Position numbers and translations under genes: made by a program
Source: Phyllobates terribilis
Taxonomy: Eukaryota
Assembly (NCBI RefSeq): GCF_046119375.1
Contig: NW_027362765.1
Coordinates: 257,114,001 to 257,178,000 of the forward strand
Direction: 5' to 3'
Length of the DNA stretch: 64,000 nucleotides
Shown here: piece by piece, positions 38,451 through 63,682 of the stretch
How positions within the stretch are numbered: the first letter of the stretch is position 1
Layout of the letters: each line of letters starts with the position of its first letter
Notes under the pieces: model-generated
Told to the model about the DNA's origin: nothing
The model's input: the letters and a program-made list of their open reading frames with translations, nothing else
The model's database searches: none

Positions 38451-40717
38451 TCTAACAGTGATTGGCAGCAGCGCAGCAAATCAGTGTTAAGTTTTGTTTG
38501 TGGCTTCTCCCCCGCGCTGACAGCAGAGCTCAGGTAATGAGCCATGCTGTGCTGAGTAACAGTGCTCCTCCTCCACTATGTCACAGGCTGACAGTAAGAA
38601 GCACAGGGAGATGGATGACTGCCTACTACTGTCACACACAGTGTAGGAAAGACAAAGTGTGACACGAAGGGATGAGGGGAAGGGAGTCCAGACACTAGGG
38701 AATGGGGGAAATGGAGACCTCCTAGGCTGATCTGCAATTACCCTGTCTCCCCTACCGTCCCTATATTGGTTCTTAACCAATTGCCGCACAGGAACCTATC
38801 CCTGTATTTCCCTAGCGCTTGGCCCTGGATAGGGAAGGGGGGATGAGGGCTAGTCGATCCCCACTGACAACTAAAGACAGCAAAGGGACACAGATACGGG
38901 GGAAGTAGCTTAGCTTGAGGCGACTTCAGAGAGATGGCACACTCGTCCTCTTAGCACTAGAGAGGAAGTAAGAACTGCACTTGCTCCAACCCTTTGACGC
39001 GCCCAGGGGAATGGGGACGACTCGGCGCCTGGACCTTGTTGTTGCCTGACCTCGGGGGATGTCGCGGTGGTCGGCTCCTGGGCCCGTACCCTGGGGTCAC
39101 TCTTAAAAAGAAGGGGGAAGTTATATGGGATAGGGGAATGTTCGTGACGCCACCTGTGGTGTCTGGTGAGGATCACCAGCGCTGCGACAGTCCTCTGAGG
39201 CCGGTCTTCGGGCAGCTTAGTTGATGCGGCTCCCCACAGGTGGAGCGGGGCCTCAGGGCAGCGTAAGTGTAGGGATGCAGGACAGAGGGGACCCAGTCGG
39301 GACAGAGGAAGAATAGGCACACTCACAACAGTTCACTTCAGTACCTTTGCTGGTGGTGTTTCTGGCACGGTCCAGGGTACTTCAGGGTGAAGGGTACATA
39401 TCAGGACTCTCCCCAGTGAGCGGGTGTGGGGCCTCCTGGTTCTTGCCTTTCCTTGATAAGTTTCTGACCTGCCTGGAGCTAGGCCTAACTTGGTCTCTGT
39501 CTTGCACCTGCTGACCTGGTGGTAGGGCCTTCTGTTGGCGATCACACTCCCTGGTCTCTTGTGCCTCCGTGATTCCTGACCCTGGTATAACAGTCAGCTT
39601 TTGGTGTTCCTGGAACATATAGTTCGCCAGGGGTTCCGGTTATTTCTGCTGGATGTAAGGAATCCCTGCAGACGCGGACCCGGTGTCTGGTAAATGGTTT
39701 TGGGGTGAGCTGGTTAAGCTCCTCTGCCCCCTATGTTGCTTGCTTACTCCACTCGCCTTTGGCCACGCTCGGGGCCCTCACTAGCCTTCACACAGACAGT
39801 AGGCCTCGCTACTCTTCACCGCTATTTTGGCGTCGGCACGCCCTAGGCTCACTAACTCGAGCTCTCTGAGTCTGGACTGACCTGACAACCTCTCTGGCTG
39901 CAGCAGACTTCACACAGACTTCACTCTCTGTGGACTCCAGACTGTGGACTCCAGACTGTAGACTCCAAACTGAACTGCCTAGCTCCACCTTCCCTTTTTA
40001 TATCCCTAAGGGGCTCCCTCTGCTGGTTTGAGGTGGAAGGTGGAGGTGTGTGAATGCTATGAGGGCCTCTTGTGGAGGAATCCGTCCATGCAACCCTCTG
40101 GGATCTGTGGCACCAATGCGCAGCAGGGCGCCACATTCCCCCCTAGCTAAGCTCAGTACTCCCGGACTGAAGTAATTTTTATAACAGATGACAACAATAA
40201 CTCTTCACTTTACGGGAGGCACTTTGCTTGAACGTTACATATAAAACATTAGAGATAATAAATAGATATGTACAATACAATAAGCAACCTCAGAATTCAA
40301 GTCTCTTCCGGTGAGGTCCCCTAACAGGGTGTCCATCTCACAGGTTAAAGTACAAGGTAGCTTGAGGGACCTGTCCAAAGCAAACCCTCAACGTAGGCCC
40401 TGGGGTGGCTGCAGGGCATGGCGATCCTGAGCTGGACCTCCACTTCTGCCACGCCAGACAGGTTTTTGTTCTGAGGTCACCTAAAGGGGCACTCCAGGGA
40501 GTGCAATTATTTACCGCAAATAGTTTTTGGGCTGCACACAGTCCTCAGCCACAAAGTTCTTTATGTACCCTTACGGGTAACTAGAGATAACAAGGGAAGT
40601 GTCCATATCACTTAAATTGTCCATTATAAGGAAAAACACAAGTTAAGGAATTCATACATGAAAATACACAATATAATACCCCAAGGGCAACTATTTACAC
40701 TGTCAGAGTTTCCTTCT

Positions 40718-43700
40718 CTATTCTCTGTATCTGCCAGGGGTCTGACCTCGTGTGCTACGTGTCGACCTACGTGGTACGGGAGTGCGGATGGTATCTGTGT
40801 CTGCACCATCTGCTACCCTGTCACTTCTACGTGTGGGTAGATTGTAAAACTGCCTTAACCTCTCTATGGGACTGGCAAGTGTACCATTGGCTAGGCCTTC
40901 TTGCTCTGCTCCAACCGGGGATCCTTCTTCCGGGGATTCTTCTTGAGGCTCTTCTGAAGCACTTACAGGTTCTACTTGCTGTGGAGGGTCTTCTGGCTGT
41001 TGAAAGAAGTGGATCACAGGTATTATTACTGCTCCTCCTAGTTGAGGCCAATCTGCCGGGAAATCTCCTAAGTCAGTATGGAGTGCTGCTTCTTTAGGCT
41101 CCTCCGGTACGGTCAGAGGCACTTCTTCTTGGGGCTTTAGCAGGTCTGGACACAACTTCAGATGGTCTCTAGATACCGTTGCAGTCGTTATTTCTCCGTC
41201 TTTGCTAATCAAACAGGTCTTCTTGTTATCAAATCTTGAATTTAACACAGTGTAGGGTTCTCTCTCCCACTGGTCATCAAGTTTGTGGTTTCTCCTTTTC
41301 CTCTTTAACACCACTTCTCCTGGTGTGAAGGGTTCTGCTGGCGCACTTTTAATGTAGTGGGCTTCCTGCTTGTCCCTTACCCGAGTGAGACTGTCTTCGA
41401 CACAGGCCTGTACTCTTCTGTACTGCTCCTGTCTGGTCGCGTCCCAGTCCTCAGTGGACATATCTGCTTCTGGTTCTACTACACCCAGCTCCAGGTCCAT
41501 GGGCAACTTTCTGGATCTTGCTCGCATGAGATATGCTGGAGTACAATTGATGGAACTCACAGGTATGTGGTTGTACAGATCTACCAGGTCAGGTAGTAGG
41601 TCTGGCCACTGATTTCTCTCCTCTAGTGGTAAGGTCTTCAGCAGGTTGATGACAATGTTATTCATCTTTTCACAGAGACCGTTGGTTTGGGGGTGGTACA
41701 GTGTAGTCCGGATCTTTTTACACCCGTACAGATGGCAGAACTCCTTGAACAGTTCGGCTTCAAAGGCTGGGCCTTGATCCGTCAGCACCTGCTCCGGGTA
41801 TCCATGGGGCCTGCAGAAGTATGCCTAGAACGTCTTCACCGCAGTTTCTGCCGTCAGATCCTTGACGGGGGCGATCACCAGGAACCGGGAGTAGTGATCC
41901 ACCATGGTCAGGGCATAGGAATATCCTGACCTGCTGGGTGACAGCTTGACATGATCCAGGGCCACGATCTCCAAGGGACGAGTCATCTTGATGGGTTGCA
42001 GGGGTACCTTCTGGCTGCTGTAGTGTTTTCTTCTGAGGCTACAGGGTCCACAATTCCGGCACCACCTCTCAATGGAACTGCGCATTTCTACTCATAAAAC
42101 CAACACTTCAGCAGGGTTTCTAGCTTCTTCCAACCAAAGTGCCCCGCCTGATCGTGGTAGGCTTCCAACACCATCTGGATGACTGTCTTGGACACCACTA
42201 TCTGCCATACCATCTCATGGGTTTTGGGGTTGACTTACCTCCGGCACAGCTTCTCTCTATAGATGAACAGCCGGGCTCTTCTCATTCCACAGCTGCTTGG
42301 CTTGTAGAGACGCGTCCTTCTCCAGGGAGGAACCTTCCTGGGTTATCAGCTCTTTGATACGGCTGACAACCGGGTCGCTGTCCTGGGTCTCCTTCCAGCT
42401 GTGGTGAGGCAGGGGGTTTAACGTCTTTCTGCGATGCCTCCTGGAGGCTCGTTGCTCATGGACCACTCCATTCCGATGAAAGGCAGGTAGTTCAATCTCC
42501 TCCAGGTCATCCACTTCTTCCTCAGTGTCCGACTGGTGAGGCATCCTGGACAGGGCATCGGCGTTGGCGTTCTTGCGGCCCACCCGGTACTTAATAATGA
42601 ATTGGTAGTTTGACAGCCGAGCCATCCATAGTTGCTCCATGGCTCCTAGCTTGGCTTTTCCAGATGAGTCAAGGGGTTATCATCAGTGAAGGCAGTGAAC
42701 TTACTGGAGTCTAGGTAGTGCTTGAACCGCTCGGTGATGGCCCAGACCAGGGTCAGGAACTCCAACTTGAAGCTGCTATAGTTCTCTGGGTTCCTCTCGG
42801 TCGGGCAGAGCTTCCTGCTTGCATAGGCGATCACCTTCTCTCGGCCATTCTGCTTCTGACTTAACACAGCCCCTAATCCCTCGTTGCTGGCATCAGTGTA
42901 CAGCAGGAATGGTTAGCTGTAGTCAGGGTAGGCTAGGATCTCTTCGCCGGTCAGGATCTCCTTCATCGCCTCAAAGGATTCAGCTTGCTCCTTATCCCAC
43001 TGGAACGGGGGGTTTCTGCCTCTCCCGGACTGTCCTACCAGGAGATCTTGCAAAGGCGCCACTTTCTTGTTATAGTCATTCACAAACCTCCGGTAATACC
43101 CGACTAGTCCCAGGAACTGACGTACCTCCTTGAGGCTCTTCGGCTCCGGCCATTTCTGGATGGCAGTGACCTTTTCCGGGTCTGGTGCTACTCCCTCTGG
43201 ACTAACGATGTGCCCCAGGTACTGTACCTTTCGCTTGAGCAGGTGGCACTTTGAGGGCTTCAGCTTCATCCCATACCAGTACAGCGACTCAAATACCTCT
43301 GCCAGGTGCTTCAAATGGTCCTCGTACGTTTTGGAGTACACATTCACGTCATCCAGGTATAGTAGTACAGTCTTGAAGTTGCGGTGTCCCAGGCAGCACT
43401 CCATCAATCTCTGGAACATTCCGGGGGCGTTGCAGAGTCCAAACGGCATACTATTGAAATTGCAGAGTCCCATCGGGGTGGTGAAGGCCGTCTTCTCCTG
43501 ATCCTCCTCAGCAACAGCTACTTGCCAGTACCCACTAGTGAGGTCAAGGGTGGAGAAGTAATTTGCAGACTTCAAGGCAGCCAGGGATTCCTCTATACGT
43601 GGTAAAGGGTATGCATCTTTATGTGTAATGTGATTTACTTGTCTGTAATCTACACACATTCTCATGCTTCCGTCCTTTTTCCTGACTAGAACTAGGGGAG

Positions 43701-44859
43701 CTGCCCAGGGACTACAACTATCCCTCACTACCCCTGCCTTCTTCATGTCATGCAACATCTCTTTCGCCTTCTGGTAGTGTGCTGGTGGTATAGGCCTGTA
43801 ACGTTCTTTGATGGGTGGATGGTCGCCTGTGGAGATATGGTGTTGAACCCCCTTAATCCTCCCAAAGTCAAGTGGGTGCTTACTGAATACCTGCACGTAT
43901 TCCTGAACCACCCGGTGTACACCCTGCTTCTGATGGGCAGGAGTGGTGTCTGTCTTAACATGAAGCTGTTGACACCAATCCTCCACCTGGGTTGCCGGGT
44001 CGTTATCCTCTACTTCGTCTGGTGAGGTTAAGGACTCCACCGTGTGTATGGAGTTGTTATTTACTGTGTACAGCTTGGCAACAGTGGCATAGCGTGGTAA
44101 TCTAACCTCGTCCTCCCCATAGTTTAGGAGGCGTACGGGCACCCTCCCATTGCGTACATCTACTACCCCTCTGGCAGTCAGGAGTGTAGGTCTATGTTCC
44201 GAGTTAAGGGGCTCTACTACCGTCTGGTAGCTCCATCCTTTGAGACCTATTGCTGCTCTACACCAAATCAGCATTTCACTCATCGGGGGAATCACAATGG
44301 GTACCGGGTCTGTCACCCGCACATTACCAATTTCACCGCCTGTTAGCTTTACCTGTTGCTGGTACATACATAAGGGCTCGGATCTCTTTCTGGAGCGCCC
44401 TTCTCTGCCCTGATCTGGCAGTGTCAGCTATCTGTTGGAGCAAGAACTCCACTTCTCCCAAACAGTTACTAACAATATTTGTGCCAAGTACCATATACAA
44501 GTCTGTATCATCAGGATTAGTCTCTGCTACAATTAGTCCCTGGTCCTTCAGTTCCACTCTTCCCACCTTTACTGCCACATCCTTAACCCTGACTAGGTTA
44601 AGGGGGAGGCGTTTGAGGCATACACGGAAAGATTTGGATCTGGTGGGTGAAGTTAGTCTAAGGACCAGAACCTTTTGTAGAGGACATCAGGCATAATGGT
44701 TACCTGAGATCCTGTGTCCAGCAGAGCAGGTGTCGCGATGCCGTCCAGCACGATGGACAGGAAAGGTCTTCCTCCCACGAACCTGCGGTACCAGTTTGAT
44801 GGGCCTGAGGGGTCTACTCCTGGGTATCGGCCCTCGGCCCCAGGGTTTGTTCGTTTAAA
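40718..44859 (-). pseudogene. pol: Gypsy Pol (PR, RT, RNase H, integrase), disrupted
   Basis: Contains LLDTGSQ, YLDD, YTDAS...IAYASR, GHFG...C..C, LDHV, TDQG and NGLCEKMN. It is entered by a -1 frame at the slippery heptamer TTTAAAC (44853-44859). There is an in-frame stop at ~44654 and several frameshifts. Confidence 0.95.
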
Positions 44860-45752
44860 GGACAGCTCCGGATGGCGTGACCTGTCTTGTGGCAGCGGTG
44901 GCAGACAGGGTCCTTCGGCGGGCGGCTTTGGTCACTGGTCCTCCCAGGGGGTGGCGTTGTCCTCCTTCTCCTTCTCATCCAGGGGACATCCTCAGGGCTG
45001 TCGGCTAGCAGGATCCTCCCTTCCTCCTCGGGCTCTGTCCGGTGCTGCAGGGCACTCAGTACAGTGGTCAGGGTTTTGCTCAACTGACGCACTTCCGAGC
45101 GCAGGCTGTCCAGCTCACTAGGGAACGTTGCTTGCACCTTGGCTTCAGCAGCCACCGGGGAAAAGGTGGACGCTGCGGGCACTGGGGTGGCCCCACCCTG
45201 GTAAAATTGGATAGCAGTTGTTTCCAGGGGCTGCAGTCCTTTTATAGCCATGTCCTTAAGGGTGTCAAAGGTGGCATCTGGGTGATCCAGGGACCACCAA
45301 TGCACAGTCCTGCTCTTCTCTTGAGACCTCAGTCCCCGGATAAACTGTTCCTTCAGCATTCTATTTTCATTATCCATGCTGGTTGGACTAACCTGTTTCA
45401 GAGCTCGCAGGGCCCCTTGTAAATGCCAGGCATAGTCCCGAACACTGTCCTCTGGTTGCTGAGAGCAGTTGTAGAACCTCATCCGGAGGTCTGTCTCAGT
45501 ACGATTCTCAAAGACAGTCTGTAACTTTTTAAAGATTGCGGACACTGACTCCTGGCCTGCGGCCGACCAGGTCTCTACTTCTCGCTCCGCAGCACCAGTC
45601 AATTGTCCTAATACAACAGCGGCTCTTTGCTTGCCTGTCATAGAGTACATGTCCAGTATACCGCATATTTTCCTTTTGAATCCAGACAGGGTATCTGGTT
45701 TGCCGCTGTACTGGGGGATCCACTTCGCTCCAGGGATGTACGATAGGGCCAT
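44814..45752 (-). CDS. gag: Gypsy Gag (PNMA-like capsid plus CCHC zinc knuckle)
   Basis: 312-aa ORF with C-terminal CHRCHKTGHAIRSC (CX2CX4HX4C). Confidence 0.9.
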   Translation of the reverse strand: MALSYIPGAKWIPQYSGKPDTLSGFKRKICGILDMYSMTGKQRAAVVLGQLTGAAEREVETWSAAGQESVSAIFKKLQTVFENRTETDLRMRFYNCSQQPEDSVRDYAWHLQGALRALKQVSPTSMDNENRMLKEQFIRGLRSQEKSRTVHWWSLDHPDATFDTLKDMAIKGLQPLETTAIQFYQGGATPVPAASTFSPVAAEAKVQATFPSELDSLRSEVRQLSKTLTTVLSALQHRTEPEEEGRILLADSPEDVPWMRRRRRTTPPPGRTSDQSRPPKDPVCHRCHKTGHAIRSCPLNEQTLGPRADTQE

Positions 45753-46236
45753 GGGTATGACAGGGGTTACAAGCCCTGCTGGTGGAGCGGCTGTTTCGGC
45801 CTGCTCGGCGCCGAGCCGGGTTGAACATCAGGGTCGTTAACCGGTATTCCGGCGTTGTGCTGTTCTTCGGACATTCTGGCGCCCCCCTAACGAACCGTGG
45901 CCTACCTTCTCTTCTTTACTTCCGGTAGGCCGTAGCTCCGCAGGTGACGGTCTTCCTTCCGGACCTTGCGTCGCTTGCGTCCTATGTCAGAGCGTTCACC
46001 GGGGCTCCTTCCAGGACCTGGCGCTTCCTGGTTTGATGTCAAGGTGTGGGGCGTGTTCGGGGCTTCACGCGAATCAGCAGCTACACCTCTCAGTTTCCCG
46101 CGGTTACACCCTTCTTCCCGCTCGGCGGCACAACAATGGCGGCGATCTTCGCCACAGCTATATACACAGTTCTGATTAAAGGCGCACAGTACCCGGTGGC
46201 AACAGGCACAACACTCCGTCATTGCAGCGGGCACGG

Positions 46237-46255
46237 AATCCTGTTCGTGACGCCA
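46237..46255 (-). promoter_or_regulatory. Gypsy primer-binding site, tRNA-Ser (CGA-type)
   Basis: TGGCGTCACGAACAGGATT is complementary to ...AATCCTGTTCGTGACG-CCA, the vertebrate tRNA-Ser(CGA) 3' end as I recall it. Confidence 0.85.
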
Positions 46256-47799
46256 GGAAGAGATGACGCGCCCAGGGGAATAGGGACGACTCGGCGCCCG
46301 GACCTTGTTGTTGCCTGACCTCGGGGGATGTCGCTGTGGTCGGCTCCCGGGCCTGTACCCTGGGGTCACTCTTAAAAAGAAGATGGAAGTTATATGGGAT
46401 AGGGGAATGTTCGTGACGCCACCTGTGGTGTCTGGTGAGGATCACCAGCGCTGCGACAGTCCTCTGAGGCCGGTCTTCTGGCAGCTTAGTTGATGCTGCT
46501 CCCCACAGGTGGAGCGGGGCCTCAGGGCAGCGTAATTGTAGGGATGCAGGACAGAGGGGACCCAGTCGGGACAGAGGAAGAATAGGCACACTCACAACAG
46601 TTCACTTCAGTACCTTTACTGGTGGTGTTTCTGGCACGGTCCAGGGTACTTCAGGGTGAAGGGTGCATATTAGGACTCTCCCCAGTGAGCGGGTGTGGGA
46701 CCTCCTGTTTCTTGCCTTTCCTTGATAAGTTTCTGACATGCCTGGAGCTAGGCCTAACTTGGTCTCTGTCTTGCACCTGCTTACCTGGTGGTAGGGCCTT
46801 CTGTTGGAGATCACACTCCCTGGTCTCTTGGGCCTCCGTGATTCCTGACCCTGGTATAACAGTCAGCTTTTGGTGTGCCTGGGACATATAGTTCGCCAGG
46901 GGTTCCGGTTATTTCTGCTGGATGTAAGGAATCCCTGCAGACGCGGACCCGGTGTCCGGGAAATGGTTTTGGGGTGAGCTGGTTAAGCTCCTCTGCCCCC
47001 TATGTTGCTTGCTTACTCCACTTGCCTTCGGCCACGCTCGGGGCCCTCACTAGCCTTCACACTGGCAGTAGGCCTCACTACTCTTCACCGCTATTTTGGC
47101 GTCGGCACGCCCTAGGCTCACTAACTCGAGCCCTCTGAGTCTGGACTGACCTGATAACCTCTCTGGCTGCAGCAGACTTCACACAAACTTCACTCACTGT
47201 GGACTCCAGACTGTGGACTCCAGACTGTAGACTCCAGACTGAACTGCCTAGCTCTACCTTCCCTTTTTATATCCCTAACGGGCTCCCTCTGCTGGTCTGA
47301 GGTGGAAGGTGGAGGTGTGTGAATGCTATGAGGGCCTCTTGTGGAGGAATCCATCCATGCACCCCTCTGGGATCTGTGGCACCAATGCGCAGCAGGGCGC
47401 CACACCTTCACAAGGTCATAAGGGATCATGTGAATATCACCGGCACCTCCCTCTAGCAACAGTCAGTATTTAAACACCCAGCCTGGGTGTCAATTAGCCA
47501 GAGGCAGGTAGTCGCTGGGTCCTAGAGTGAGACAGCTAAGAAGGTGCCTGTAATTCCAAACAAAGAGATCTTCGGCAACCAACTGCAGGGCGACTGTCTG
47601 TCACTTCTGACACACCCGTGACAGCTACATCACTCACCAAAGGTTAGATATATGTAGCTGAGCTTGATTATCACCAATAGTGAGCCCTTGCCAACACAAA
47701 CAGTGGGTATCATAGGCGGCTTTACTCACTGGTGATAAAGGGTGAGTGGGCTCAGTCACTAAGGGAGGATTTCCCTCATTTTTTTGTTTCACCCCTGAC

Positions 47800-48410
47800 T
47801 GATCCTCCCCTGTATCACCCCTTATTGAGCCTCCTTTGTATCACCCCTGACTGACTGAGCCTCCCCTGTATCACCCCTGACTGACTGAGCCTCCCCTGTA
47901 TCACCCCTGACTGACTGAGCCTCCCCTTTATCACCCTTGACTGAGCTCCCCTGTATCACCCGTGACTAAGCCTCCCCTGTATCACGCCTGACTGACTGAC
48001 CATCCCCTGTATCACCCCTGACTGAGCCTCCCCTGTATCACCCCTTGCTGAGCCCACCAAGTACCACCCCTGACTGATAAAATGTCCCCATTTTGGTATA
48101 ATATCCCCATCCAGGGCCCATGCTATAATCATGTCCACTTCCTGGTATAATGTCCGCTATCCTGGTTTAATGTTACCCATCCTGGTATATTATCCCAATT
48201 CTGGTATATTGTCCCCATCCTAATATAATGTCCCCAGCCTGGTATGTTATCCCTCATTTTGACATAATGTCCTCCATCCTGATATAATGTCACATCTTGA
48301 TATAATGTCCGCCATCCTGATATAATGTCCGCCATCCTGGTATAATGTCCCCCATCCTGGTATAATGTCCTCCATCCTGGTATAATGTCTGCCATTCTGG
48401 TTTAATGTTT
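47800..48410. repeat. Two adjacent minisatellites (~30 bp CCTCCCCTGTATCACCCCTGACTGACTGAG; ~20 bp TATAATGTCC.CCATCCTGG), probably the interior of a MITE
   Basis: Directly visible at 47800-48050 and 48090-48410. Confidence 0.8.
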
Positions 48411-49618: not shown

Positions 49619-50057
49619 GGCTATGTTCACACACGTTGTGTTTTGCTGCGGACTTTGTAGAAGATTTTTATGCAAATTTTCAGCTGCGTCTAGCAGTACC
49701 AGCAAAGTGTATGAGAAACCAGAATTCTCTGTTCACATATGTTGCTTTTTGTTTGCTGCATCTTTCCTGCCTTGCCTGCATTTTTGGAAAATAGAGCATG
49801 TCACGTCTTTCAGCATTTTTTCAGCGTTTTTCACCCATAGAAAGTAATGGGTGGTGAAAAGAATGCTGAAAAAACTAAGCTAAATTTTTTTCAGTGTTTT
49901 TTCAGTGTTTTTGATTGCAAAATATTGGTTCTATTTTGTGATTACCCTCTTGTCTTGGTCACTGAGATGGTTGTTTGCATTGGTACAGTGTAAACATTCT
50001 CTGACCTACTTGTGAGGTTGAACAATACCTGTGTCTCAGTGAGGTGTGAACATAGCC
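49619..50057. mobile_element. PIF/Harbinger-type MITE
   Basis: Perfect 14-bp TIRs GGCTATGTTCACAC / GTGTGAACATAGCC, with flanks TAA / TAC. Confidence 0.75.
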
Positions 50058-52915
50058 TACATGACTTTTCTTGATCTGATTTGGGCTGCATTGTTGCATT
50101 GAAGTCCGTATAAAGTCTTATTTTTCATGAATATTGTAAAGAGCAGCATAACGTATGAGGTTTCAGAAAATAGATTGCCTCTCATTAAATGTAATGGCAG
50201 CATTATCATCTTATAGATGCTATAACAGGCCCTTATTAGAACTCAGTAGGACAGACTGCAAATGGTTCTGTCTTTTTCAGCATAGCTTTCATTTGTGCTC
50301 TACATTTTCCAATTACCTTCTACTGTTTTTAGTGGTATCAAAGCACATTCCCTTTCATTAATTCTCTGGTCTTTTAATTGCTTTAGGGATAATTATGAAA
50401 AATGTCATAACGTGTTTTGCACACAAAGCCAGAAGCTTACTGTACACCTTATCTGTCTGTGCGGCAATGCCTCAGGAGGAAGACACAATGAATTATGTAG
50501 TGTAGATTTGAAAGTACTAATTAATCAGAAAGCTAGACCCCAGGAAGAGAGGAAGGAACAAGCAAAACTGTGGAATGGGCATCCTGCCTCCTTACTCCAA
50601 TGTGGCAGGTCATAAAAACTAATCCTTGCATTACTCAAAACATGCAAAAAAGACAAGATCTAGAGATATGATACTCTTTCATAACAGCACAAAAGTGCCC
50701 AAAAAAATAACTAACACCATTTATTATGTACTCTCACAGTAAACACACGAGTGAGGAATTGGAATTACATATAAAATGTAAAACATGGCAGATTATTTAC
50801 AAATTCCTAAGGCCAATTTCTTATAGTTATGTCCATACTGAAGAATTCCCTTGTGGGCTATTTTCTTCATACTGCCAAGAGAGAAAATATGACATTTACA
50901 AGACTAGAACCTCCCATTTTAGACTATTAGTTTCAGTAGATCTCCCGCATTAAACATAAGTATTTCCCATACATCATCACTACACAAGTGCACACTGAGA
51001 ATTAATATACTTCCAACTTTACTGTACCCTCTGAAATATATAAGCATTGTGCTGATCTATACCGTGTACGGTAGGTACCCTGTTTATGGTTGTCAACTGC
51101 CCAGCCACTCCTCTCCTCTCCTATCCCTTTGGTCCTTTCCCTTTCCTTTTCAGTCTCTTTCCTTTCCCTTTCTGTCATGTCCCATGATTTGGAAGTCATA
51201 CAGACAGTATTGTATTATCATTGTGACGCGCCCCCTGGGACATATTCCTTTTTGAGGGGAATACCCGGCACCGGATCAGATGGGGGGTTGTAGTCTCCGA
51301 GCGGCTGTGACCCGGCCCCGTGCCCAGGGCGTCAAGCTCAGTGTTATGTGGCAGTCCTACAGATGTTATTAAGAGTTCTTTTGTGTCGACTACGCCACCC
51401 GTTGTGATGCGGTCACTGTGGCCGCCGCTGCAGCAGGGTCCGCTGAGGCTGATGGTGGATGCGCAGCTTGGTGGGATAACCCCCAACGGGAGGGGTATAG
51501 CCTCAGAGGGGACAGGCGCAGAGGATGGGGGTTGTGGTGGTGCGGTGCAGCCGGCAGTGAAGACAGAGTCGGGTTGTGCAGTTAAGGGTGTTTACTTACT
51601 GCAGATGTTGTACTGGTCACTCCAGCTGCTAGTGACCACCCGAGCCGTGCTGCGTCCACCAGGTCCTGGATCCAGCCAACCCCCAAACAAGTCCGGAGCG
51701 TGGCCCTGAGCTCTCCCTCTGTCCTTTCTTCAGCCGTCCCCACCAGTGATTCACCTAGGTCCAGCTCCCTCGGGCCTTCTGTTGGGACACCCTTGGCCCT
51801 GGGTTCCCTGACCCTTCATGTGGTGTGCCTTCGGGGTGAATATGGTGGGTGACCGTGGCAAACGCTGCCCACGATCTCCGGTCTCTGGCTAGGGATTGTT
51901 TTTGCCCCCACCAGCTTGGGTTCCGGTACCCTGATGCTGACTCCTCACCCGGTGCTCTAATTTGGGTTCTTGGGTCCCTTCAGTCTTCCCCCTCTGGGTC
52001 TTTCTCTGCTCCACTCTCTCTCTCTCCAGGGCTGCTGTTTCCTTCTCTCTCCTCTCCAACTCACTTTCTGCGTCTGAACTTGTCCTCTGCAGCTGACTGA
52101 CCCTGATCTAAGTTGGTGCCCTCCTTATATATCCCTCTATGTGTGAGCTCAGGTGACCAGCACCCAATGAGCTCCTATCACTACCCAGACTGCTCCCCCT
52201 ATCTGCCCCTACACTACATGGGATGTACCACCCCCCTCCCACTCCAGCCAGGAACAGGCTCGGTTGTACCTGCACATTTCTAAGTGGGAGTACCGTCGGC
52301 CTGCTCCTCTGAAATGGGATGTATGTAGTGCATGCAGTCTATCTGAGCTCAGTTCCACACTCCATCCTTACCCGGGAGTGGAATATCACACCTCTGGGTT
52401 GAGGTGCAATACCCCTGTAGCAGCCGAACCCTCAGGGTGCTACATTCCCCCCTGGTAAACCACAGCACGTCCTCGGGCTGTAAAGACATAAAACACCAAA
52501 ACATACAATTTTTTTTTTTTTTTTTCATATAAACATATAAAACATATAAAACATTATATATATAAAACTTTTTTATATAAACATTCTCGTAGACTTCTCT
52601 TGTCTCTGGTTCCTCCTCCGGACACTGTGCAACGTGTGTCCGGGAAAAGTGCGACAGTCTCTTAGAAAAACTGGTTTTCTATAAAACCGGTAGGGGGCGC
52701 TTTAGGAAGCGCAACTATATACAGGGAGAAGTTGGAAGTTGGCCGCTCTCAGTCCTCGGCCAGGTAGAGGGAAGGGAATGGCTGCTCACAGTCCTCAGCC
52801 TGTAGGATAAAGGGGTTAACGGGTAAACAGTTCACTGGTCCCAACGGGGACTATTTTAGCTCTAACGGTTCACTGTGCCCCGACGGGCAACTATATACAG
52901 TCTCTACTCCCGTCC

Positions 52916-54742
52916 TCAACGACGGCTCCCTCCTGCTTTTTCTTGATATGGTGTTGCTTCAGACCCGTCCGGGTCCTCTGGCTCCTCCTCTCCGTACCGC
53001 AACTCCTCCTCCGTCAAGCGGTGTACGTGGAGGGCGTAAGGTCCTTTGGCACACTTGTGCCGGGTGAAAGTGACTTCGTCTCCGACGTAGAGGTCACGGC
53101 CTTTGTGACCTTCCGGCAGGTGGGACTCGACGTCTCTGCGAGTCACAAAAACGTCACCGCGGTTGTTACGGTCCCGAATAAAGCCCCACCCATGCTGCGG
53201 GTTGAACTTTATCACTGTCCCGATGGTGCGGGGACAATGCGCTGCACGGGGGTTCCTCCTAGTCCGGCTCTTCTGCTCCGCGCTCCGGATTTGGGCCTGT
53301 TGTTCTCTGACCCGCCTCTCCTCCCGTTCTCTCTTAAACTCTGCTAGCTGCTGACGACAACACTCAGTACGCTCAGCGGCGACTGCCCGAGTTTCTCCGG
53401 TGAACCCCATCAAATCTTCTCCCGTGGGGTCCCACACGAATTGGGCTTCTTCTAAAGGAGGCGAGACCCGAGTCACGGGCTTCGGAGCCGGGATCAGGGG
53501 TTCACACAAGGGCCCTAGTCTTTGTTGCCGCTCCAGCTCATGGTATCCTTCGGGCCAGATGAAGGGTCGCCCGTCCGGCCATGTGAGCTGGCTGAAGAGG
53601 TCCTCCCCCAGGTGTGGCACCCTTGGTATTGCGGGCGCGGGCGCGGTGGTGGTGGCGCCCGGGTTGCCCAGGCCTTGCGGCCAGGCCTGGGGCACCTGGA
53701 AGGTGAAGGGCACCGTTAGGACGGCGGCGCCCTGGGCTACCTGGCCTTGCGGCCAGGCCGGAGGCTCCGCGGAGGTAGGGGGCGCTGTTGGTGGTGCGGC
53801 GCCCGGGGGTACTAGGCCTTGCGACCAGGCTGGTGGTAATTCCTGCTTTGTCACGCTCCGGGTCGAGGCGCGTGACGTCACAGGGGTCGCTGCGGTGGCT
53901 TCCGGTCGGGGCCTAGTCCATGGCGGTGACATGGCGGCTACGGGCACAGCAGGGGGACTTTCGGGCTCTGCGACGGGGAGCTGGGGCAGGTGGGCGGTTT
54001 CACGGCTTGGGGTATAGACGTCCCCTTTACCTGCCTCCATGCGTTCGGCTCCCTCCTCGGCGCCGTCTCCGGCCTTGGGTCCTCCCGCGCCATCCTCAGA
54101 GGCGGTCTGCTTCCTCTTCCAGGGTAGCGTGCTCCGTTGACTGGTCTCTGCTTGCTGGGCCATCTCCCGGCTCCACTCCGCCAGTATCTCACGCTGTACC
54201 CGGGCCATCCTCCTTGCGAGGCCCTCCAGGGCAGTTTGTGCACACTCCCGGTCTCGGGGGAGCTGCGCTAAGATCTCCGCTAGACCTAGCGGGGTTGTGG
54301 ACTCTAGCAGGCTCCTGACCATCGGGTCGGTGCTGCTCTGCTCTTCTTCCGGCAGGCTCCTGGCCAGCGGGCCGGTGCTGCTCTGCCCTCCTTCCTCGGT
54401 CTCTAGCAGACTCCTGGCCAGCGGGCCGGTGCTGTTCTGCTTTCTCTCCATCTCCGGGTGAGCTCCTCCGCTACTCCTCGTTAGACCTCTTGCCTCCGGG
54501 TGCGCTCGCTCCAGACTCCTCCAGGCGACACCCATCTTTGTTCTCTCCTTTCGTCTCCTCCCACTTCGAGGGCGGTCCCGGGGCAACTCGGTGACTGTCA
54601 GCTCCAGGGGTAGTTCTTTCACGCTGACAGACACCTCCAACATCACAGTCTCTGTTGGTGGGGGCGGTTTCCACTTTTGGCGCCATTTTCTGTCCTGGCC
54701 CACGATGGGAGGTGGCCTCCTGCCCTCCTTTGGCACGCCCAT
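52916..54742 (-). CDS. ~608-aa Pro-rich/coiled-coil protein with a C-terminal Y-box-like cold-shock domain (CSD at ~53015-53224) and an acidic tail
   Basis: Uninterrupted ORF. GTVIKFNPQHGWGFIRDRNNRGDVFVTRRDV...GDEVTF...KGPYALHV aligns to the CSD pattern (GTVKWFN..GYGFI...DVFVH...G..V.F...KG..A..V). The first ATG after the PBS is at 54742, and the frame is also open further upstream. Confidence 0.88.
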   Translation of the reverse strand: MGVPKEGRRPPPIVGQDRKWRQKWKPPPPTETVMLEVSVSVKELPLELTVTELPRDRPRSGRRRKERTKMGVAWRSLERAHPEARGLTRSSGGAHPEMERKQNSTGPLARSLLETEEGGQSSTGPLARSLPEEEQSSTDPMVRSLLESTTPLGLAEILAQLPRDRECAQTALEGLARRMARVQREILAEWSREMAQQAETSQRSTLPWKRKQTASEDGAGGPKAGDGAEEGAERMEAGKGDVYTPSRETAHLPQLPVAEPESPPAVPVAAMSPPWTRPRPEATAATPVTSRASTRSVTKQELPPAWSQGLVPPGAAPPTAPPTSAEPPAWPQGQVAQGAAVLTVPFTFQVPQAWPQGLGNPGATTTAPAPAIPRVPHLGEDLFSQLTWPDGRPFIWPEGYHELERQQRLGPLCEPLIPAPKPVTRVSPPLEEAQFVWDPTGEDLMGFTGETRAVAAERTECCRQQLAEFKREREERRVREQQAQIRSAEQKSRTRRNPRAAHCPRTIGTVIKFNPQHGWGFIRDRNNRGDVFVTRRDVESHLPEGHKGRDLYVGDEVTFTRHKCAKGPYALHVHRLTEEELRYGEEEPEDPDGSEATPYQEKAGGSRR

Positions 54743-54978
54743 AATGGCGTCCGCTGCTCTTCCAAGGCGGGAAATCTGCGGTTTTGGCGGGAAGCGTCGC
54801 CCAGTGGCGGGAAACTCTGCAGATGGCGGGAACAAGCTGGAAATGGCGGACAATCGGCGGGAAACGACTGGTGATGGAGTCCGATGGCGTGGACCCTCCG
54901 GAACCGGCGGGAGACTTCTTTCTGAGGTAAACTTGCACTTTTCTTCAGGCACGCAGTACCCGGGTGTTGCGGGCACGT

Positions 54979-54997
54979 AATCCTGCCGACTACGCCA
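54979..54997 (-). promoter_or_regulatory. Primer-binding site, tRNA-Ser (AGA/TGA-type)
   Basis: TGGCGTAGTCGGCAGGATT is complementary to ...AATCCTGCCGACTACG-CCA. An identical PBS occurs at 58288-58306. Confidence 0.88.
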
Positions 54998-57014
54998 AAG
55001 TTGACGCGCCCCCTGGGACATATTCCTTTTTGAGGGGAATACCCGGCACCGGATCAGATGGGGGGTTGTAGTCTCCGAGCGGCTGTGACCCGGCCCCGTG
55101 CCCAGGGCGTCAAGCTCAGTGTTATGTGGCAGTCCTACAGATGTTATTAAGAGTTCTTTTGTGTCGACTACGCCACCCGTTGTGATGCGGTCACTGTGGC
55201 CGCCGCTGCAGCAGGGTCCGCTGAGGCTGATGGTGGATGCGCAGCTTGGTGGGATAACCCCCAACGGGAGGGGTATAGCCTCAGAGGGGACAGGCGCAGA
55301 GGATGGGGGTTGTGGTGGTGCGGTGCAGCCGGCAGTGAAGACAGAGTCGGGTTGTGCAGTTAAGGGTGTTTACTTACTGCAGATGTTGTACTGGTCACTC
55401 CAGCTGCTAGTGACCACCCGAGCCGTGCTGCGTCCACCAGGTCCTGGATCCAGCCAACCCCCAAACAAGTCCGGAGCGTGGCCCTGAGCTCTCCCTCTGT
55501 CCTTTCTTCAGCCGTCCCCACCAGTGATTCACCTAGGTCCAGCTCCCTCGGGCCTTCTGTTGGGACACCCTTGGCCCTGGGTTCCCTGACCCTTCATGTG
55601 GTGTGCCTTCGGGGTGAATATGGTGGGTGACCGTGGCAAACGCTGCCCACGATCTCCGGTCTCTGGCTAGGGATTGTTTTTGCCCCCACCAGCTTGGGTT
55701 CCGGTACCCTGATGCTGACTCCTCACCCGGTGCTCTAATTTGGGTTCTTGGGTCCCTTCAGTCTTCCCCCTCTGGGTCTTTCTCTGCTCCACTCTCTCTC
55801 TCTCCAGGGCTGCTGTTTCCTTCTCTCTCCTCTCCAACTCACTTTCTGCGTCTGAACTTGTCCTCTGCAGCTGACTGACCCTGATCTAAGTTGGTGCCCT
55901 CCTTATATATCCCTCTATGTGTGAGCTCAGGTGACCAGCACCCAATGAGCTCCTATCACTACCCAGACTGCTCCCCCTATCTGCCCCTACACTACATGGG
56001 ATGTACCACCCCCCTCCCACTCCAGCCAGGAACAGGCTCGGTTGTACCTGCACATTTCTAAGTGGGAGTACCGTCGGCCTGCTCCTCTGAAATGGGATGT
56101 ATGTAGTGCATGCAGTCTATCTGAGCTCAGTTCCACACTCCATCCTTACCCGGGAGTGGAATATCACACCTCTGGGTTGAGGTGCAATACCCCTGTAGCA
56201 GCCGAACCCTCAGGGTGCTACAATTGTGTTTATATTGTGCCGTTTGTTGCTATGCAATAAGGTTTGCGCTCTTTAGAATTTGTCCTTCCTCTCTCCTTGT
56301 CTCTCTCTGATGTCAGTAACACCTCCCTTCTTCCTCATTCACTGTATATCAGCCATCTTAGAAGCTCATGTGTTTCTGAAAAGTTTTTTTTACCTACTGT
56401 AACTGTGCATAACTACAAGAATTCAGCTGGAAAATAAACCTTCTTCTGGAATCTTTATATATGCTTCCTGCAGTCGAGTTCAAGCTATCTGAGGACATCA
56501 CTCTGTGTGAGTAACGGTTGATAGAGGCAGCCTAGAACTGGTGTCTCAAGCTCTCTACACTTGCAGCTTAGTTATTGAGTAAGAATACTTTTCTTTTTCC
56601 CTTCCCTTCGCTTTCGTTTCCTGCAGACCTTCTGAGCCCTGTACCTTCTTGGTAGGCGATATTATCCTCTAACTTGTCTTCTTCAGAGAATGGACATGCA
56701 ATCTGAATATGCTATCCTTGAACTGTTGACTTTTCTGCCTCGTCCCCAGATTATCTTCTTTCTTTAGATGAGAGAATCTATTTTGCACGGAATGAGTTTG
56801 GTACAAATCTTTCTTCACTCATCAGTTTGTAAATACAACTAATTTGGGATTAGTTTTCTGCTGATCGCCCAAAATGGCCACTGCCAGGTTAATAGGTAGC
56901 ATAAGACAGAGGAGAAGACTGGATAATATGTCAGAGAAGAAGGATGTATCACATGAACTCGGATGCGGCTGGGCAGGCTTCCCAATAATGCCTTGCAGTT
57001 ACTCCACACGATAG

Positions 57015-60000
57015 TGTAGCACCCCGAGGGCTCGGCTGCTACAGGGGTATTGCACCTCGAACCAGAGGTGTGGTATTCCACTCCCGGGTAAGGATGGAGT
57101 GTGGACTAGAACTCAGTTAGCTGCATGCACCACACACACCCCATTTCCGAGGAACAGACCGACGGCACTCCCACTAGAAAGATGTGCAGGTACGACAGCT
57201 TCTGTTCCTGGCTGGAGTGGGGAGGGGGAGGAAAACCCAGTGGTGTAGGAGCAGATAGGGGCGGGTTTCTGGGCATAGGAAGGAGCCCATTGGTTGCTAA
57301 TCACCTGGGCTCGGATGTCAGAGGGAGTATAAAAGTTGGGCACCATCTTAGGAGTGAGTTCAGTTGAGTCAGACAGAAGAAGAGGGAGAAGAGGAGTGAC
57401 AGGGAGCAGCAGCCCTGTCTGGGTGCTGCCCCTGGAGGGAGCAAGAGTGAAGAAGAAAGGAACAAGAAGCAAGGAAAGAATGAAACATAAGAAAAGGCCC
57501 AGAGACATGAAGCAAGAAGGAACCCGAACACGCTAGGAGTCAGCGGGTGAAGGGTTGGCAGATCAGGGTACCGGATCCCAAACTGGTGGAGGCCACTTAT
57601 CCTCAGCCAGGAACCGGAGGATGTGGCCACGTCTTGGCGCGACCACTCACTACACTCACCACGAAGGCATGCCACATAGGGTCAGGGAGACCGGAGAAAG
57701 GTTTCGCCATCAGAAGGCCTGAGGAAGCTGGACATGGGTGGGTCCCTAGTGGGGACGGCCAGAGAAAGGAACGGGGAAAGGAGTTCAAGGTCACACTCTG
57801 GAACTGCCTGGGGGTTGGTCGAGCCCCGTACCTGGTGGACGCAGCACGACTCGGGTGGTCCTACTGTGCACGGACGACCTGGTAAAGAACTGTGAGTAAA
57901 GCTTTTGAAACTGCACTTCAAGCCTCCGTGTTTCGTCGTCGCACCTGCACCATCAGTACTGGGACACCCGCACCATCACTCCCATTGTCATTTCTTTCAT
58001 AGCTGCCCTGAGGCCATACCCCTCCCGTTGGGGGTTATACCATCCACGCTGCACATCCGTACCACCGGCCTCAGCGGACTGCCCTGCAGCGGCGGCTTCA
58101 TAGCCGCATTCAACGGGTGGCGTAGTCGGACACTAATACCATCAAATCAATAGCGCCACTTAGTTTGACCACCCTGGGCACGGACCGGGTCACCGCCACG
58201 AGGACTACTACCCCTATCTGATCCGGCTCCGGGTATTCCCCGCGTGCGCAACGCTACCCAAACATGGCCCAGGGGGCGCGTCAACTTTGGCGTAGTCGGC
58301 AGGATTACGTGCCCGCAACCACCGGGTACTGCGTGCCTGAAAAAAGAGACTTTTATACTTGCCTGTGGTGAAGTTTTCCGCCGTCCGGAGTCGTTTCCCG
58401 CCATCTGGAGCCGATTCCCGCCATCCGACGCCATCTTCTGCCTTCTTCCCGCCATCCGTGGAGTTTTCCCACCATTGGACGCCATCTTGAGGACGCCGCG
58501 CGGGAAGAAGAGGGGCGTGGACTCCGAAAGCCCGCGAGAACTGAAGCCCCGCCTCACGTCCGGACGTTGCGTAAGGTCCTGGAAGGAGCCCAGCAGACGC
58601 CGACGTCACAGGAGCGCGACGGAAGGTCCTCAACCCTGACGATCCACTGCGTAGCCGCGGCCTACGGAAGAGGATCATCACAAGGTAGGCCACGGTCCAC
58701 TAGGGGGGAGGAGGATGTCGGATACGGAGGAGAGCTTCACTACCGCAGCCACCATCCAGCACTGCGTCCATCCCGAGAGGCAGCAGAAGCGGATCGGAGG
58801 CCGAGGATGACGCCGCGGGGGAGGCCGCAACGACAAGTAAGGGGAACGCCGTTACTCCGGGCCCTGAGGCCGCGGACCTGCCCCTACCTCCCGCCGCGGA
58901 ACCCGAAGCTCTGGGTGCCGCACCGCCCGCCGTGCCTCCATCACCAGCAGTTAGCCCTCCAGCAGCATGCTCTGCAGCGGAGCCTCGCCCAGGACCGTGC
59001 TCCCCAACATCGGGCACGATCAGAAAGTCACCGGCCTGGTTGAAAGGCCGAGTGCCCGCGGGCGCTTCACCCCAGCCGGGGCCCCCAGTCGTACCACCAT
59101 TGGGGAAAGACCTGTATGAGCAGCACACCTGCCCGGAGGGGACACCATTCGTCTGGCCGCCTGAATACACCAACCCCCGCTCCAGGAAGAGTCACCCCGT
59201 AGGAGCAAGGGCCCCAGATGAACCGTTAATCCCAGCTCCGGAGCCGTGGACCTCTCTTCACCCCCGCTGGAAGACGCCAATTCGAAGGGGACCCCACTGG
59301 AGAAGACCTGATGGGGTTCACTCAGGAGACCCGGGCGGGCGCCGTCCGGCGCTATGGGACCTGCCGCCAACAACGGGCAACGGTTGAGCGGGAGCGGAGA
59401 GAGAGGAAAGTGAAGGAGAAGTGGCTCCACATTAAAAACGTGGAGCAGAAGACAAGGGCCCGCCAGGACCCCCCGTACAGCTCACGGTCCCCGAGTCACC
59501 GGGACTGTTGTTAAGTTTCATATGGCATGTGGCTGGGGCATCATTTAAAACCCGAAGACCATGAGCCAGGTGTTTGTAAACAGGAGCGACGTAGAGTCCC
59601 ACCTACCGGAGGGGCACAGTGGACGGGACCTGGTGCCTGGAGATACCGTCACCTATACCAGGCATAAGGGAGTGAAGGGGTGGTGCGCCCTTCATGTCCA
59701 CCGGGTCAAGGAGGAGGAGGAGTTATCGTACCAGGAGGAGAAGAAAGAGGGCCCGGACGGGTCTGAACCTGAGGAAGAGGAAGGAGCGTGTGGAGGATAC
59801 CGTAAATCGTAAACGGTAAAAGAGGAGATGTAAATAGTTACCCGATCGGGTATAAGGACTGTTGTGAGACTGTTTCCACAAAGAGTGTGGTCCCCGTTGG
59901 GACAGAAAGAGAACTGTTGCCTGTTTTGCCCTAATCCCTAACCTGACCGAGGACTGAGAGCGGTCATCCTTTCCCTCTACCTGGCTGAGGACTGACAGCG

Positions 60001-61580
60001 GCCAGATCCCAAGGAGTCAAGAATGTTGAAAATGTTTTATATGAAAAATGTCTAAATGTGAAAGTTTTACAATGCCTCTAAAAGTAACGATGCTGAAGTT
60101 TTATATATCGTGTTTTCTACAAAAGAGTTCCCGTGGCATTAGCAAAAGCGTTGATATCAGTAACGTTAAAGTGAAAAGAGTACCTCCCATAAAGGGATGA
60201 TTTGAAAGTTAATGTCTTATTTATGAGTGTACACTTTAAAATTTTTGTAAGTTTGTAATTGTTTTGCTCTGTTTCAGCCCGAGGACGTGCTGTGATTTAC
60301 CAGAGGGGAATGTAGCACCCCGAGGGCTCGGCTGCTACAGGGGTATTGCACCTCGAACCAGAGGTGTGGTATTCCACTCCCGGGTAAGGATGGAGTGTGG
60401 ACTAGAACTCAGTTAGCTGCATGCACCACACACACCCCATTTCCGAGGAACAGACCGACGGTACTCCCACTAGAAAGATGTGCAGGTACGACAGCTTCTG
60501 TTCCTGGCTGGAGTGGGGAGGGGGAGGAAAACCCAGTGGTGTAGGAGCAGATAGGGGCGGGTTTCTGGGCATAGGAAGGAGCCCATTGGTTGCTAATCAC
60601 CTGGGCTCGGATGTCAGAGGGAGTATAAAAGGTGGGCACCATCTTAGGAGTGAGTTCAGTTGAGTCAGACAGAAGAAGAGGGAGAAGAGGAGTGACAGGG
60701 AGCAGCAGCCCTGTCTGGGTGCTGCCCCTGGAGGGAGCAAGAGTGAAGAAGAAAGGAACAAGAAGCAAGGAAAGAATGAAACATAAGAAAAGGCCCAGAG
60801 ACATGAAGCAAGAAGGAACCCGAACACGCTAGGAGTCAGCGGGTGAAGGGTTGGCAGATCAGGGTACCGGATCCCAAACTGGTGGAGGCCACTTATCCTC
60901 AGCCAGGAACCGGAGGATGTGGCCACGTCTTGGCGCGACCACTCACTACACTCACCACGAAGGCATGCCACATAGGGTCAGGGAGACCGGAGAAAGGTTT
61001 CGCCACCAGAAGGCCCGAGGAAGCTGGACATGGGTGGGTCCCTAGTGGGGACGGCCAGAGAAAGGAACGGGGAAAGGAGTTCAAGGTCACACTCTGGAAC
61101 TGCCTGGGGGTTGGTTGAGCCCCGTACCTGGTGGACGCAGCATGGCTCGGGTCGTCATCACCTGCAGGACTGACGTTAATAACAACTGTGAGTAAAGCAT
61201 TGAAAACTGCAATCAGTCTCAGTGTTCCATCGCACCACCAGCACCATAGGTACCGGGACGCTCTTACTATCACTCCCTTCACCCGCACCAGCTGCCCTGA
61301 GGCTATACCTCTCCCGTTGGGGGTTATACCACCATAGCTGCACATATATACCATCGGCCTCAGCGGACTGATTTGCAGTGGCGGCCTTGCGACCGCAAAT
61401 CAACGGGTGGCGTAGTCGGACACTAATACCATCATACCAATAACTGCCACTTAGTTTGACCACCCTGGGCACGGACCGAGTCACCGCCACATGAAGACTA
61501 CTACCCCCATCGGATCCGGCTCCGGGTATTCCCCGCGCGCACGCGCGCCGTACTACAGCACTGGCCCAGGGGGTGAGTCA
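57015..61580 (+). mobile_element. Second subfamily of the CSD-carrying LTR element (4566 bp), TSD ATAG
   Basis: LTRs at 57015-58283 and 60311-61580, PBS at 58288-58306 and PPT at 60299-60310. ATAG occurs at 57011-57014 and 61581-61584. Confidence 0.95.
58600..59812 (+). pseudogene. Disrupted homolog of the CSD protein
   Basis: Conserved blocks KGNAVTPGPEAADLP, GKDLYEQHTCPEGTPFVWP, EPLIPAP, DLMGFTQETRA and GTVVKFHMACGWGII*NPKTMSQVFVNRSDVESHLPEGHSGRDL. Has frameshifts and a TAA at 59546. Confidence 0.88.
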
Positions 61581-63640: not shown

Positions 63641-63682
63641 GTTGCCATATCGTCATCTTTTTTTTTACTTTTGAAAAAAATC

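Follow-up and report, generated by a model that had tools for sequence, protein, structure and literature searches.

Cold-shock-domain satellites of Gypsy retrotransposons in Phyllobates terribilis, probably mobilised in trans by gag-pol-coding relatives

How can long terminal repeat (LTR) elements without reverse transcriptase (RT) or integrase (IN) multiply, and whose proteins would copy them? The question is raised by 64,000 nucleotides of the Phyllobates terribilis genome (contig NW_027362765.1, positions 257,114,001 to 257,178,000, forward strand; this whole stretch is called the window). Three complete LTR elements lie in it: A, a Gypsy retrotransposon, and B and C, two members of a family coding for a cold-shock domain (CSD), here called CSD satellites. 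With a probability of about 0.78, we consider that B and C belong to a large and young lineage devoid of RT and IN that retains a U3, a 3' UTR and a cold-shock-domain gene of its own and is packaged and copied in trans by the Gypsy clade of A and of a younger sister lineage in this genome, G2, where G2 would be the present helper and A an earlier one. We infer such trans-mobilisation by an autonomous partner because satellites and partner share a module at the 5' end of their RNA and because their ages overlap. An earlier reading of the window from its letters alone (the sequence-only reading) had instead taken A as the helper, and its numbering of shared motifs is kept below. The features concerned are the following (PBS, primer binding site; PR, protease; RH, RNase H; UTR, untranslated region; TSD, target-site duplication).

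47404..38995, minus strand: element A, Gypsy LTR retrotransposon, order gag-PR-RT-RH-IN, with frameshifts and stops
46264-47404 and 38995-40135, minus strand: LTRs of A, 96.7% identical
46238..46255, minus strand: PBS of A, complement of tRNA-Ser(CGA)
46180..46209, minus strand: post-PBS hairpin of A, containing motif 3, at +56 owing to a 25-nt insert
44814..45827, minus strand: gag frame of A (Pfam PNMA, Retrotrans_gag and zf-CCHC_2, each just below cut-off)
42913..44427, minus strand: RT-containing frame of A (RVT_1, E 4.5e-37)
40718..41824, minus strand: integrase-containing frame of A (rve, weak)
40685-40698 (motif 4) and 40531-40550 (motif 5), minus strand: 3' UTR motifs of A, common to the CSD elements and absent in G2
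56222..51224, minus strand: element B, CSD satellite, 4-bp TSD
55002-56222 and 51224-52444, minus strand: LTRs of B, 100% identical
54980..54997, minus strand: PBS of B, complement of tRNA-Ser(AGA/TGA), same as the G2 PBS
52916..55369, minus strand: open frame of B, 817 codons from stop to stop, 608 from a conserved MGVP start at 54742
53021..53221, minus strand: cold-shock domain of B (Pfam CSD, E 1.5e-8; fold matches CspA, YBX1/2 and CARHSP1)
52781..52898, minus strand: 3' UTR motifs 4 and 5 of B
57015..61580, plus strand: element C, CSD satellite with a frameshifted open reading frame (ORF), 4-bp TSD
57015-58283 and 60311-61580, plus strand: LTRs of C, 92% identical overall
57820..58283, plus strand: foreign R-end/U5 tract in the 5' LTR of C, 67-92% identical to its own 3' LTR against 99-100% in the first 800 bp
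58002..58762, plus strand: U5-PBS-leader block of C common to G2, 88.6-89.7% over ~770 bp, leader 94-100%, gag ATG at 58715
58288..58338, plus strand: PBS of C (58288-58305) and post-PBS hairpin with motif 3
59480..59707, plus strand: cold-shock domain region of C, frameshifted, 62% to B
59830..59994, plus strand: 3' UTR motif 4 and motif 5 core of C

Elements without enzymes of their own

B and C possess LTRs, a PBS, a polypurine tract (PPT) and a TSD, and multiplied recently without RT or IN of their own, as non-autonomous LTR retrotransposons do. The TSDs, read in sense orientation, are AAGG for A, CAAT for B and ATAG for C, in agreement with the 4 bp given by the sequence-only reading for all three. 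A and G2 display Ty3/Gypsy hallmarks (LTRs of the form TG..CA, PBS, PPT, short TSD) and the domain order gag, RT, IN according to Pfam and tblastn, with protease and RNase H read by eye. As PNMA is placed under Barthez in the relevant passage of PMC3670739, the sub-cut-off PNMA match of gag may provide a lead, and a lead only, to a Barthez affiliation.

The idea that a larger autonomous element coding for both a CSD and gag-pol gave rise to the CSD elements by deletion is largely refuted, and we regard it as extremely improbable. It has a parallel in bird endogenous retroviruses (ERVs), which carry captured CSDs in otherwise retroviral genomes (PMC12287698, in the part describing them), and one locus (L136) gave both CSD and integrase matches. 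However, no longer CSD copy with its own gag-pol, which the sequence-only reading had named as a possible refutation, was found: gag, RT and IN matched 0/23 satellite rows anchored on the PBS (retention of a gag ORF, the mark of TR-GAG elements, is thus not observed), and the CSD matched 0/39 Gypsy rows. At 20 loci with a CSD-type 3' end, neither RT nor IN adjoined the anchor, and gag alone did so in one. A genome-wide search found no G2 3' end joined to a satellite U3 and none of the opposite junctions; its controls, the native forms, matched 13/18 and 14/20 of the fetched copies. L136 itself, tried as an autonomous CSD element, proved to be an A-type integrase gene into which a young satellite had inserted. 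At a separate locus (L087, C1:14022700-14032699), a CSD-type U3 and a CSD-type 3' end flank a truncated Gypsy gag, forming a gag-only chimera.

In the 10.6 Gb genome, a first look with the B protein yielded 41,535 candidates, of which the best 150 were at 99-100%. Exact counts were 38,462 for the B/C-type PBS pattern and 2,731 for the A-type PBS, and genome-wide matches reached 31,046 for the CSD-type 3' end, 34,295 for the G2 3' end motif and 6,699 for the A-type 3' motif. The 40 fetched loci with a B/C-type PBS were divided equally between satellites (20) and gag-pol-coding Gypsy elements of the G2 group (20), while the 19 with an A-type PBS comprised 18 Gypsy elements and one CSD element. 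The RT of G2 is 80-84% identical to that of A in 18/19 rows. Median LTR identity was 99.6% for satellites (n=32), 99.1% for G2 (n=17) and 95.8% for the A lineage (n=4), and frames of at least 1,300 codons were present in 8/20 G2 rows and 0/19 A-type rows. A further 20 loci anchored on the A-type 3' motif proved to be A-type Gypsy or older elements, whose longest frame was 1,049 codons, none thus reaching 1,300, and which included five LTR pairs of more than 1,000 bp at 94.7-97.3%. Automatic calling recovered an exact 4-bp TSD in 24/40 cases and a 5-bp one in 0/40; as it missed the plain TSD of A, errors in the boundaries account for at least part of its misses. The tallies and the trees exclude L026 (no PBS in the fetched orientation), L019, L028 and L038 (LTR bounds miscalled) and loci without two alignable LTRs; the tallies alone also exclude L051 (internal deletion), L082 and L087. 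Several satellites, including some at L082, stand in head-to-tail tandems ~3.8 kb apart, with an apparently shared LTR.

Candidate helpers and the U5-PBS-leader module

Which Gypsy lineage the satellites resemble depends on the part compared. In BLAST comparisons with A, B shares a single 21-nt island and C two short stretches. Against four G2 copies, C aligned over ~770 contiguous bases at 88.6-89.7% in three and at 75% in the fourth, and B over 400-527 bases at 72-74% in three. Identity over U5 and leader was 0.77 for B to the best G2 and 0.59 to A, and 0.90 and 0.61, respectively, for C, where the shuffled background was 0.55. The block that C shares with G2 begins ~290 nt 5' of the PBS, close to the R/U5 border and past an AGTAAA signal, and ends at about codon 10 of the G2 gag. 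The resulting leader-gag junction has 233 exact matches in the genome.

The coding regions, described earlier as unrelated, are indeed so between A and either satellite, but C opens with ~10 codons of G2 gag. An in-frame gag-CSD fusion was considered and rejected: in 12/12 C-type copies the frame of the captured gag ATG closes after 99 codons and differs from that of the CSD part, which has a frameshift of its own. The CSD ORF occupies the gag-pol slot of a Gypsy backbone by position, as had been proposed, and that backbone is of the A/G2 clade, but the captured start codon is not in its frame in these copies.

Phylogenies of different parts of the elements disagreed. In the tree of U3 (59 rows), the 37 satellites formed one clade (SH-aLRT 100), whereas the tree of the U5-PBS-leader on the same number of rows required at least seven changes among satellites, and a single satellite clade was rejected (approximately unbiased (AU) test, p-AU 0.00017). 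The satellites have therefore swapped their U5-leader module with both Gypsy lineages. The two trees, the AU test and sliding identity all point to region-specific LTR recombination between partners. The 3' UTR tree was poorly resolved and was not used. Five satellites had a U5 nearer to the A type than to the G2 type; they are mostly older and deep-branching on the CSD tree, which is rooted at its midpoint only. On these comparisons the satellites are mosaics: the U3 and the ORF are their own, the 3' UTR descends from an A-like ancestor, and most of the 5' modules come from G2.

These data bear directly on the proposal of the A lineage as helper, whose proteins would read each of the six motif classes as a packaging or replication signal. 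This proposal now appears unlikely. It can claim motifs 4 and 5, which are present in 4/4 A-type elements and 29-30/32 satellites, as well as some older satellites with an A-like U5 and an A-type PBS and the abundance of the A-type 3' motif; moreover, a few A-type RT matches lie in frames of more than 1,400 codons, so that some residual activity may persist. Nevertheless, neither the 19 PBS-anchored rows nor the 20 motif-anchored loci of A type contain a frame of at least 1,300 codons, which contrasts with the identical LTRs of B, and B and C use another primer tRNA and have a U5-leader close to background relative to A. As present helper, the A lineage is the poorer candidate: A-type elements are older, fewer and broken, and it is G2 that has the exact PBS and the long contiguous U5-leader block.

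Element C retains two U5 modules within one insertion. Its LTRs show four differences in the first 800 bp, but identity falls to 67-92% in the final 470 bp. The 5' U5 resembles that of another satellite subfamily, unlike the 3' LTR and the leader, which are typical of C's own (57820-58283 compared with 61115-61580). Because its TSD is intact, C is one young insertion. The two modules derive either from two co-packaged RNAs or from a later conversion tract. C illustrates that LTR identity can misdate a copy, as it seems 8% diverged and yet is young.

A conversion tract in C would also fit a reading without any specific partnership, in which shared ancestry and DNA-level recombination suffice, any available Gypsy machinery moves the satellites, which are Gypsy derivatives, and ectopic recombination or conversion between similar LTRs, present in tens of thousands, makes the mosaics. 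The gag-only chimera agrees with it, and generalist mobilisation has been proposed for beet elements (in a passage of PMC13570524). We nevertheless consider it improbable, since exchange is limited to the U5-PBS-leader, with U3 and 3' ends unexchanged, and since the unrelated young Gypsy lineage that we sampled has none of the motifs.

The exchanged module has a particular place in replication. The U5 and PBS-leader lie at the 5' end of the RNA, are copied first during reverse transcription and carry priming signals. Under trans-mobilisation by the A/G2 clade, satellite RNA would enter helper particles through the folded U5-PBS-leader module, where packaging signals are placed by analogy. Template switching between co-packaged RNAs would then swap the module, with the left crossover near the R/U5 border and the right one in the leader, at most ~10 codons into gag, and selection would retain recombinants matched to the active helper, primer tRNA included. 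The part of a Gypsy RNA that likely sets helper specificity would then be the U5-PBS-leader and not the 3' UTR. Tentatively, and with the odds somewhat against the full scenario, a long-lived, protein-coding satellite of a vertebrate Gypsy clade may have outlived one helper by capturing the U5-PBS-leader and primer tRNA of the next through co-packaging, with a CSD protein that wins packaging or escapes silencing, reaching about the copy number of its helper and contributing some 100 Mb, in order of magnitude, to a giant frog genome, as an analogue of phage satellites.

Shared motifs, RNA folding and the cold-shock-domain gene

All eight coordinate pairs reported for the shared motifs hold on the sense strands, yet they amount to fewer independent facts than motifs listed, because GGATT is part of the tRNA complement and because CGTGCCCG and motif 3 are predicted to pair. 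The U5 end GGGCGCGTCA, reported in both element types, occurs in 5/6 LTRs, the 3' LTR of C ending in GAGTCA. A tRNA-Ser PBS followed by GGATT is likewise present in both, but the sites differ at 5/18 letters, that of A matching tRNA-Ser(CGA) and those of both satellites tRNA-Ser(AGA/TGA) (tRNA genes called by ARAGORN in 4/12 loci). Motif 3 (46180-46199 and 58319-58338) does match at 18/20 positions, with two mismatches in B, but lies at +56 from the PBS in A and at +31 in B and C. CGTGCCCG and motif 3, listed as separate signals, are both present as described, but they are the predicted arms of one hairpin and probably represent one structure, not two signals. Motif 4 (40685-40698, 52885-52898 and 59830-59843) stands 19, 17 and 17 nt past the last stop in A, B and C, respectively, and motif 5 (40531-40550 and 52781-52800) matches at 19/20, with its core in C at 59983-59994; both are as first reported.

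In shuffled controls of 53 complete elements, motif 3 appeared in 0/265, motif 4 in 1/265 and motif 5 in 0/265, which places the motifs above chance. Motifs 4 and 5 are found in 0/17 G2 elements. They are therefore not signals common to today's likely helper, and are better read as inheritance from an A-like backbone. Whether the motifs are generic to vertebrate Gypsy elements was addressed in one unrelated lineage of this genome, from which they are absent. This lineage (20 loci, mostly one lineage, from an RNase H family search) has integrase before RT, an RT 38-46% identical to that of A and a different PBS. Motif 5 was absent in 20/20 of its loci, and motif 3, motif 4 and the U5 end each had one match in the 10-kb control stretches, read as lying outside the element. 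The search represents a single control lineage in one genome and is no survey of vertebrates.

Two other sets of sites accompany the primer and leader region. A second PBS-like site is present in each LTR, about 146-176 nt before its end (46409-46423, 39140-39154, 55165-55177, 51387-51399, 58116-58128 and 61406-61418). It fits the primer tRNA of its own element in 60/62 rows, and a short complementary stretch further down covaries with it; it is possibly a second tRNA contact or an RNA switch. A splice-donor-like AAG/GTAGG lies just 5' of the gag ATG (45894-45908 and 58682-58696) in 15/17 G2, 3/4 A-type and 3/32 satellite elements, and an acceptor-like pyrimidine tract with CAG lies just before the PPT (52475-52490 and 60270-60285). 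A spliced leader-to-LTR RNA is conceivable from these sequences.

Conserved hairpins are predicted in the U5-leader module, with two-sided changes in 18/36 pairs, above 500/500 shuffles and all slid controls. This covariation supports the hairpins and does not prove them.

The gene carried in place of gag-pol is under selection. B has a single long frame, with a low-complexity N-terminal part, then a predicted 45-residue helix and a C-terminal CSD (Pfam E 1.5e-8, 34.8 bits against a cut-off of 27). A model of the last 152 conserved residues gave the helix followed by a five-strand barrel, which matched CspA, YBX1/2 and CARHSP1 with E values of 1e-6 to 1e-5. By family membership, the domain is predicted to bind single-stranded nucleic acid. 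Between subfamilies, dN/dS was 0.10 for the CSD, 0.10 for the preceding helix, 0.37 for the N-terminal part and 0.49 for the Pro/Ala-rich middle (four pairs with no sequence used twice, three for the N-terminal part). The low values imply that the CSD protein was selected during replication. An ORF of 600-800 codons under purifying selection also sets the satellites apart from TRIM and LARD elements, which have no coding capacity. In many B-like copies (window 54471-54944, L001-L059), the ORF is also open upstream, through leader and PBS to a U5 ATG at -24; this extension has a dN/dS of 0.58, so that translation may start either there or further downstream.

A word-based search with the B protein gave two homologues, both from Phyllobates terribilis. 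In a profile search of 1.84 billion representatives, the top single-domain matches were proteins of Phyllobates, Ranitomeya variabilis, R. imitator and Anomaloglossus baeobatrachus (seven proteins looked up, six named). The homologues from Phyllobates, the two Ranitomeya species and Anomaloglossus carry the same CSD insert. No single CSD donor could be retained: bacterial cold-shock proteins came slightly ahead of YBX/CARHSP1 by sequence, Atlas and fold, with margins too small and Atlas scores below 0.9. A named poison-frog R3HCC1 protein model starts with a satellite-family CSD, through either a gene-model artefact or exonisation.

The CSD protein most likely acts on RNA, and in trans as well as in cis, because ORF-dead and CSD-deleted copies have spread too. 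A more specific role is doubtful but conceivable: the helix-plus-CSD protein may be an RNA chaperone that protects satellite RNA or helps to pack it, possibly at the 3' UTR motifs, and also in trans, so that the ORF-dead C would be a free rider.

Several points weigh against mobilisation by G2 and its relatives as set out here. Motifs 4 and 5 are lacking in 17/17 G2 copies, so that the present helper manages without them. ORF-dead C-type copies number at least 233, and CSD-deleted copies with 99.8% identical LTRs exist, so that no CSD is required in cis. The same mosaics would also result from ectopic DNA recombination or gene conversion. The large B-like burst reaches only 0.77-0.80 identity to any sampled G2 U5, and a closer, unsampled helper is possible. 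The structure used for counting covariation was itself derived from the alignment in which the pairs were counted, and the relatedness of some rows makes the counts too high; the post-PBS hairpin is near invariant (two-sided change in 1/7 pairs) and says little for or against itself. Finally, sampling was concentrated in the first 41 Mb of contig C1, the source of most loci, four of the first 20 were chosen for a rarer letter after the PBS, and the tallies include only four complete A-type elements.

Related partnerships and other features of the window

The satellite family is a variant of the known partnerships between helper and non-autonomous LTR elements. In the soybean SNARE family (SARE/SNRE), reportedly described by Du and colleagues in 2010, a high-copy non-autonomous element is said to be matched to its autonomous partner by 'LTR swapping', and the CSD satellites similarly exchanged LTR sequence with autonomous partners. 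In contrast to SNARE, the frog satellites belong to animal Gypsy elements, exchanged the U5-PBS-leader alone while U3 stayed satellite-specific, did so with two helper lineages having different primer tRNAs, and have a selected cold-shock-domain gene. Among vertebrates, MaLR, VL30 and the replication-defective transducing retroviruses are LTR elements that need a helper, and in the transducing viruses a non-viral gene takes the position of gag-pol. Their helpers are retroviral, however, the MaLR ORF is Gag-derived, and transducing viruses do not form long-lived germline lineages. In their probable dependence on a helper, the satellites resemble these elements.

Plant pairs of helper and non-autonomous element include Dasheng, BARE-2 and SNRE (named in PMC4079214); Dasheng/RIRE2, BARE-2/BARE-1, RLG_Quinta/RLG_Cereba, LARDs and TR-GAG are named in passages of PMC4079214 and PMC13570524, and recombination during reverse transcription is treated in part of PMC6894440. 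As presented in these passages, they share with the satellites incomplete coding, cis sequence common with the partner and high copy number, whereas these plant elements are non-coding or keep remnants of gag or pol, and the satellites keep a protein unrelated to gag-pol at a dN/dS of 0.10. In non-autonomous grass pararetroviruses, the partnership is likewise maintained by region-specific recombination, which homogenises non-coding regulatory sequence; these are pararetroviral and without an LTR integration cycle, and no CSD is mentioned in the abstract of the source (PMC5491270). The CSD-carrying bird ERVs similarly have a cold-shock domain within an LTR retroelement, but they are 46 scattered cases of repeated capture in the part of PMC12287698 concerned, whereas the frog elements form one Gypsy-derived lineage with the CSD gene as its sole gene and tens of thousands of copies. 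TRIMs with 4-bp TSDs are also known from animals, and are described in PMC10886601 as short, with only a PBS and a PPT between their LTRs.

In the literature outside subscription journals and repeat databases, we found no account of a CSD-coding non-autonomous Gypsy element in frogs, and a Repbase or Dfam entry may exist. The terms 'cold shock' and 'non-autonomous' had no match in the main text, as distinct from the supplements, of two poison-frog genome papers. Non-autonomous LTR elements are usually seen as decayed or non-coding, and the CSD satellite is a stable lineage with its own selected gene. Its homologues occur in three dart-frog genera, and its tens of thousands of copies make the record of helper switches datable. 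It is a natural system for testing how a retroelement is served by a cold-shock domain, a kind of domain that bird ERVs have also captured repeatedly, and it is a likely contributor to genome size in dart frogs.

Elsewhere in the window, a lone LTR-like copy of the CSD family (28153..29362, plus strand) is 72% identical to the LTRs of C. A broken element with a BED zinc finger, likely a hAT-type transposase, lies at 10618-13959. Tandem arrays occupy 8915-10410, 13916-15714, 20287-21809, 32674-33986 and 63670-63980, with units of 52, about 150, 28/31 and 72 nt and a degenerate telomere-like CCCTAA array.

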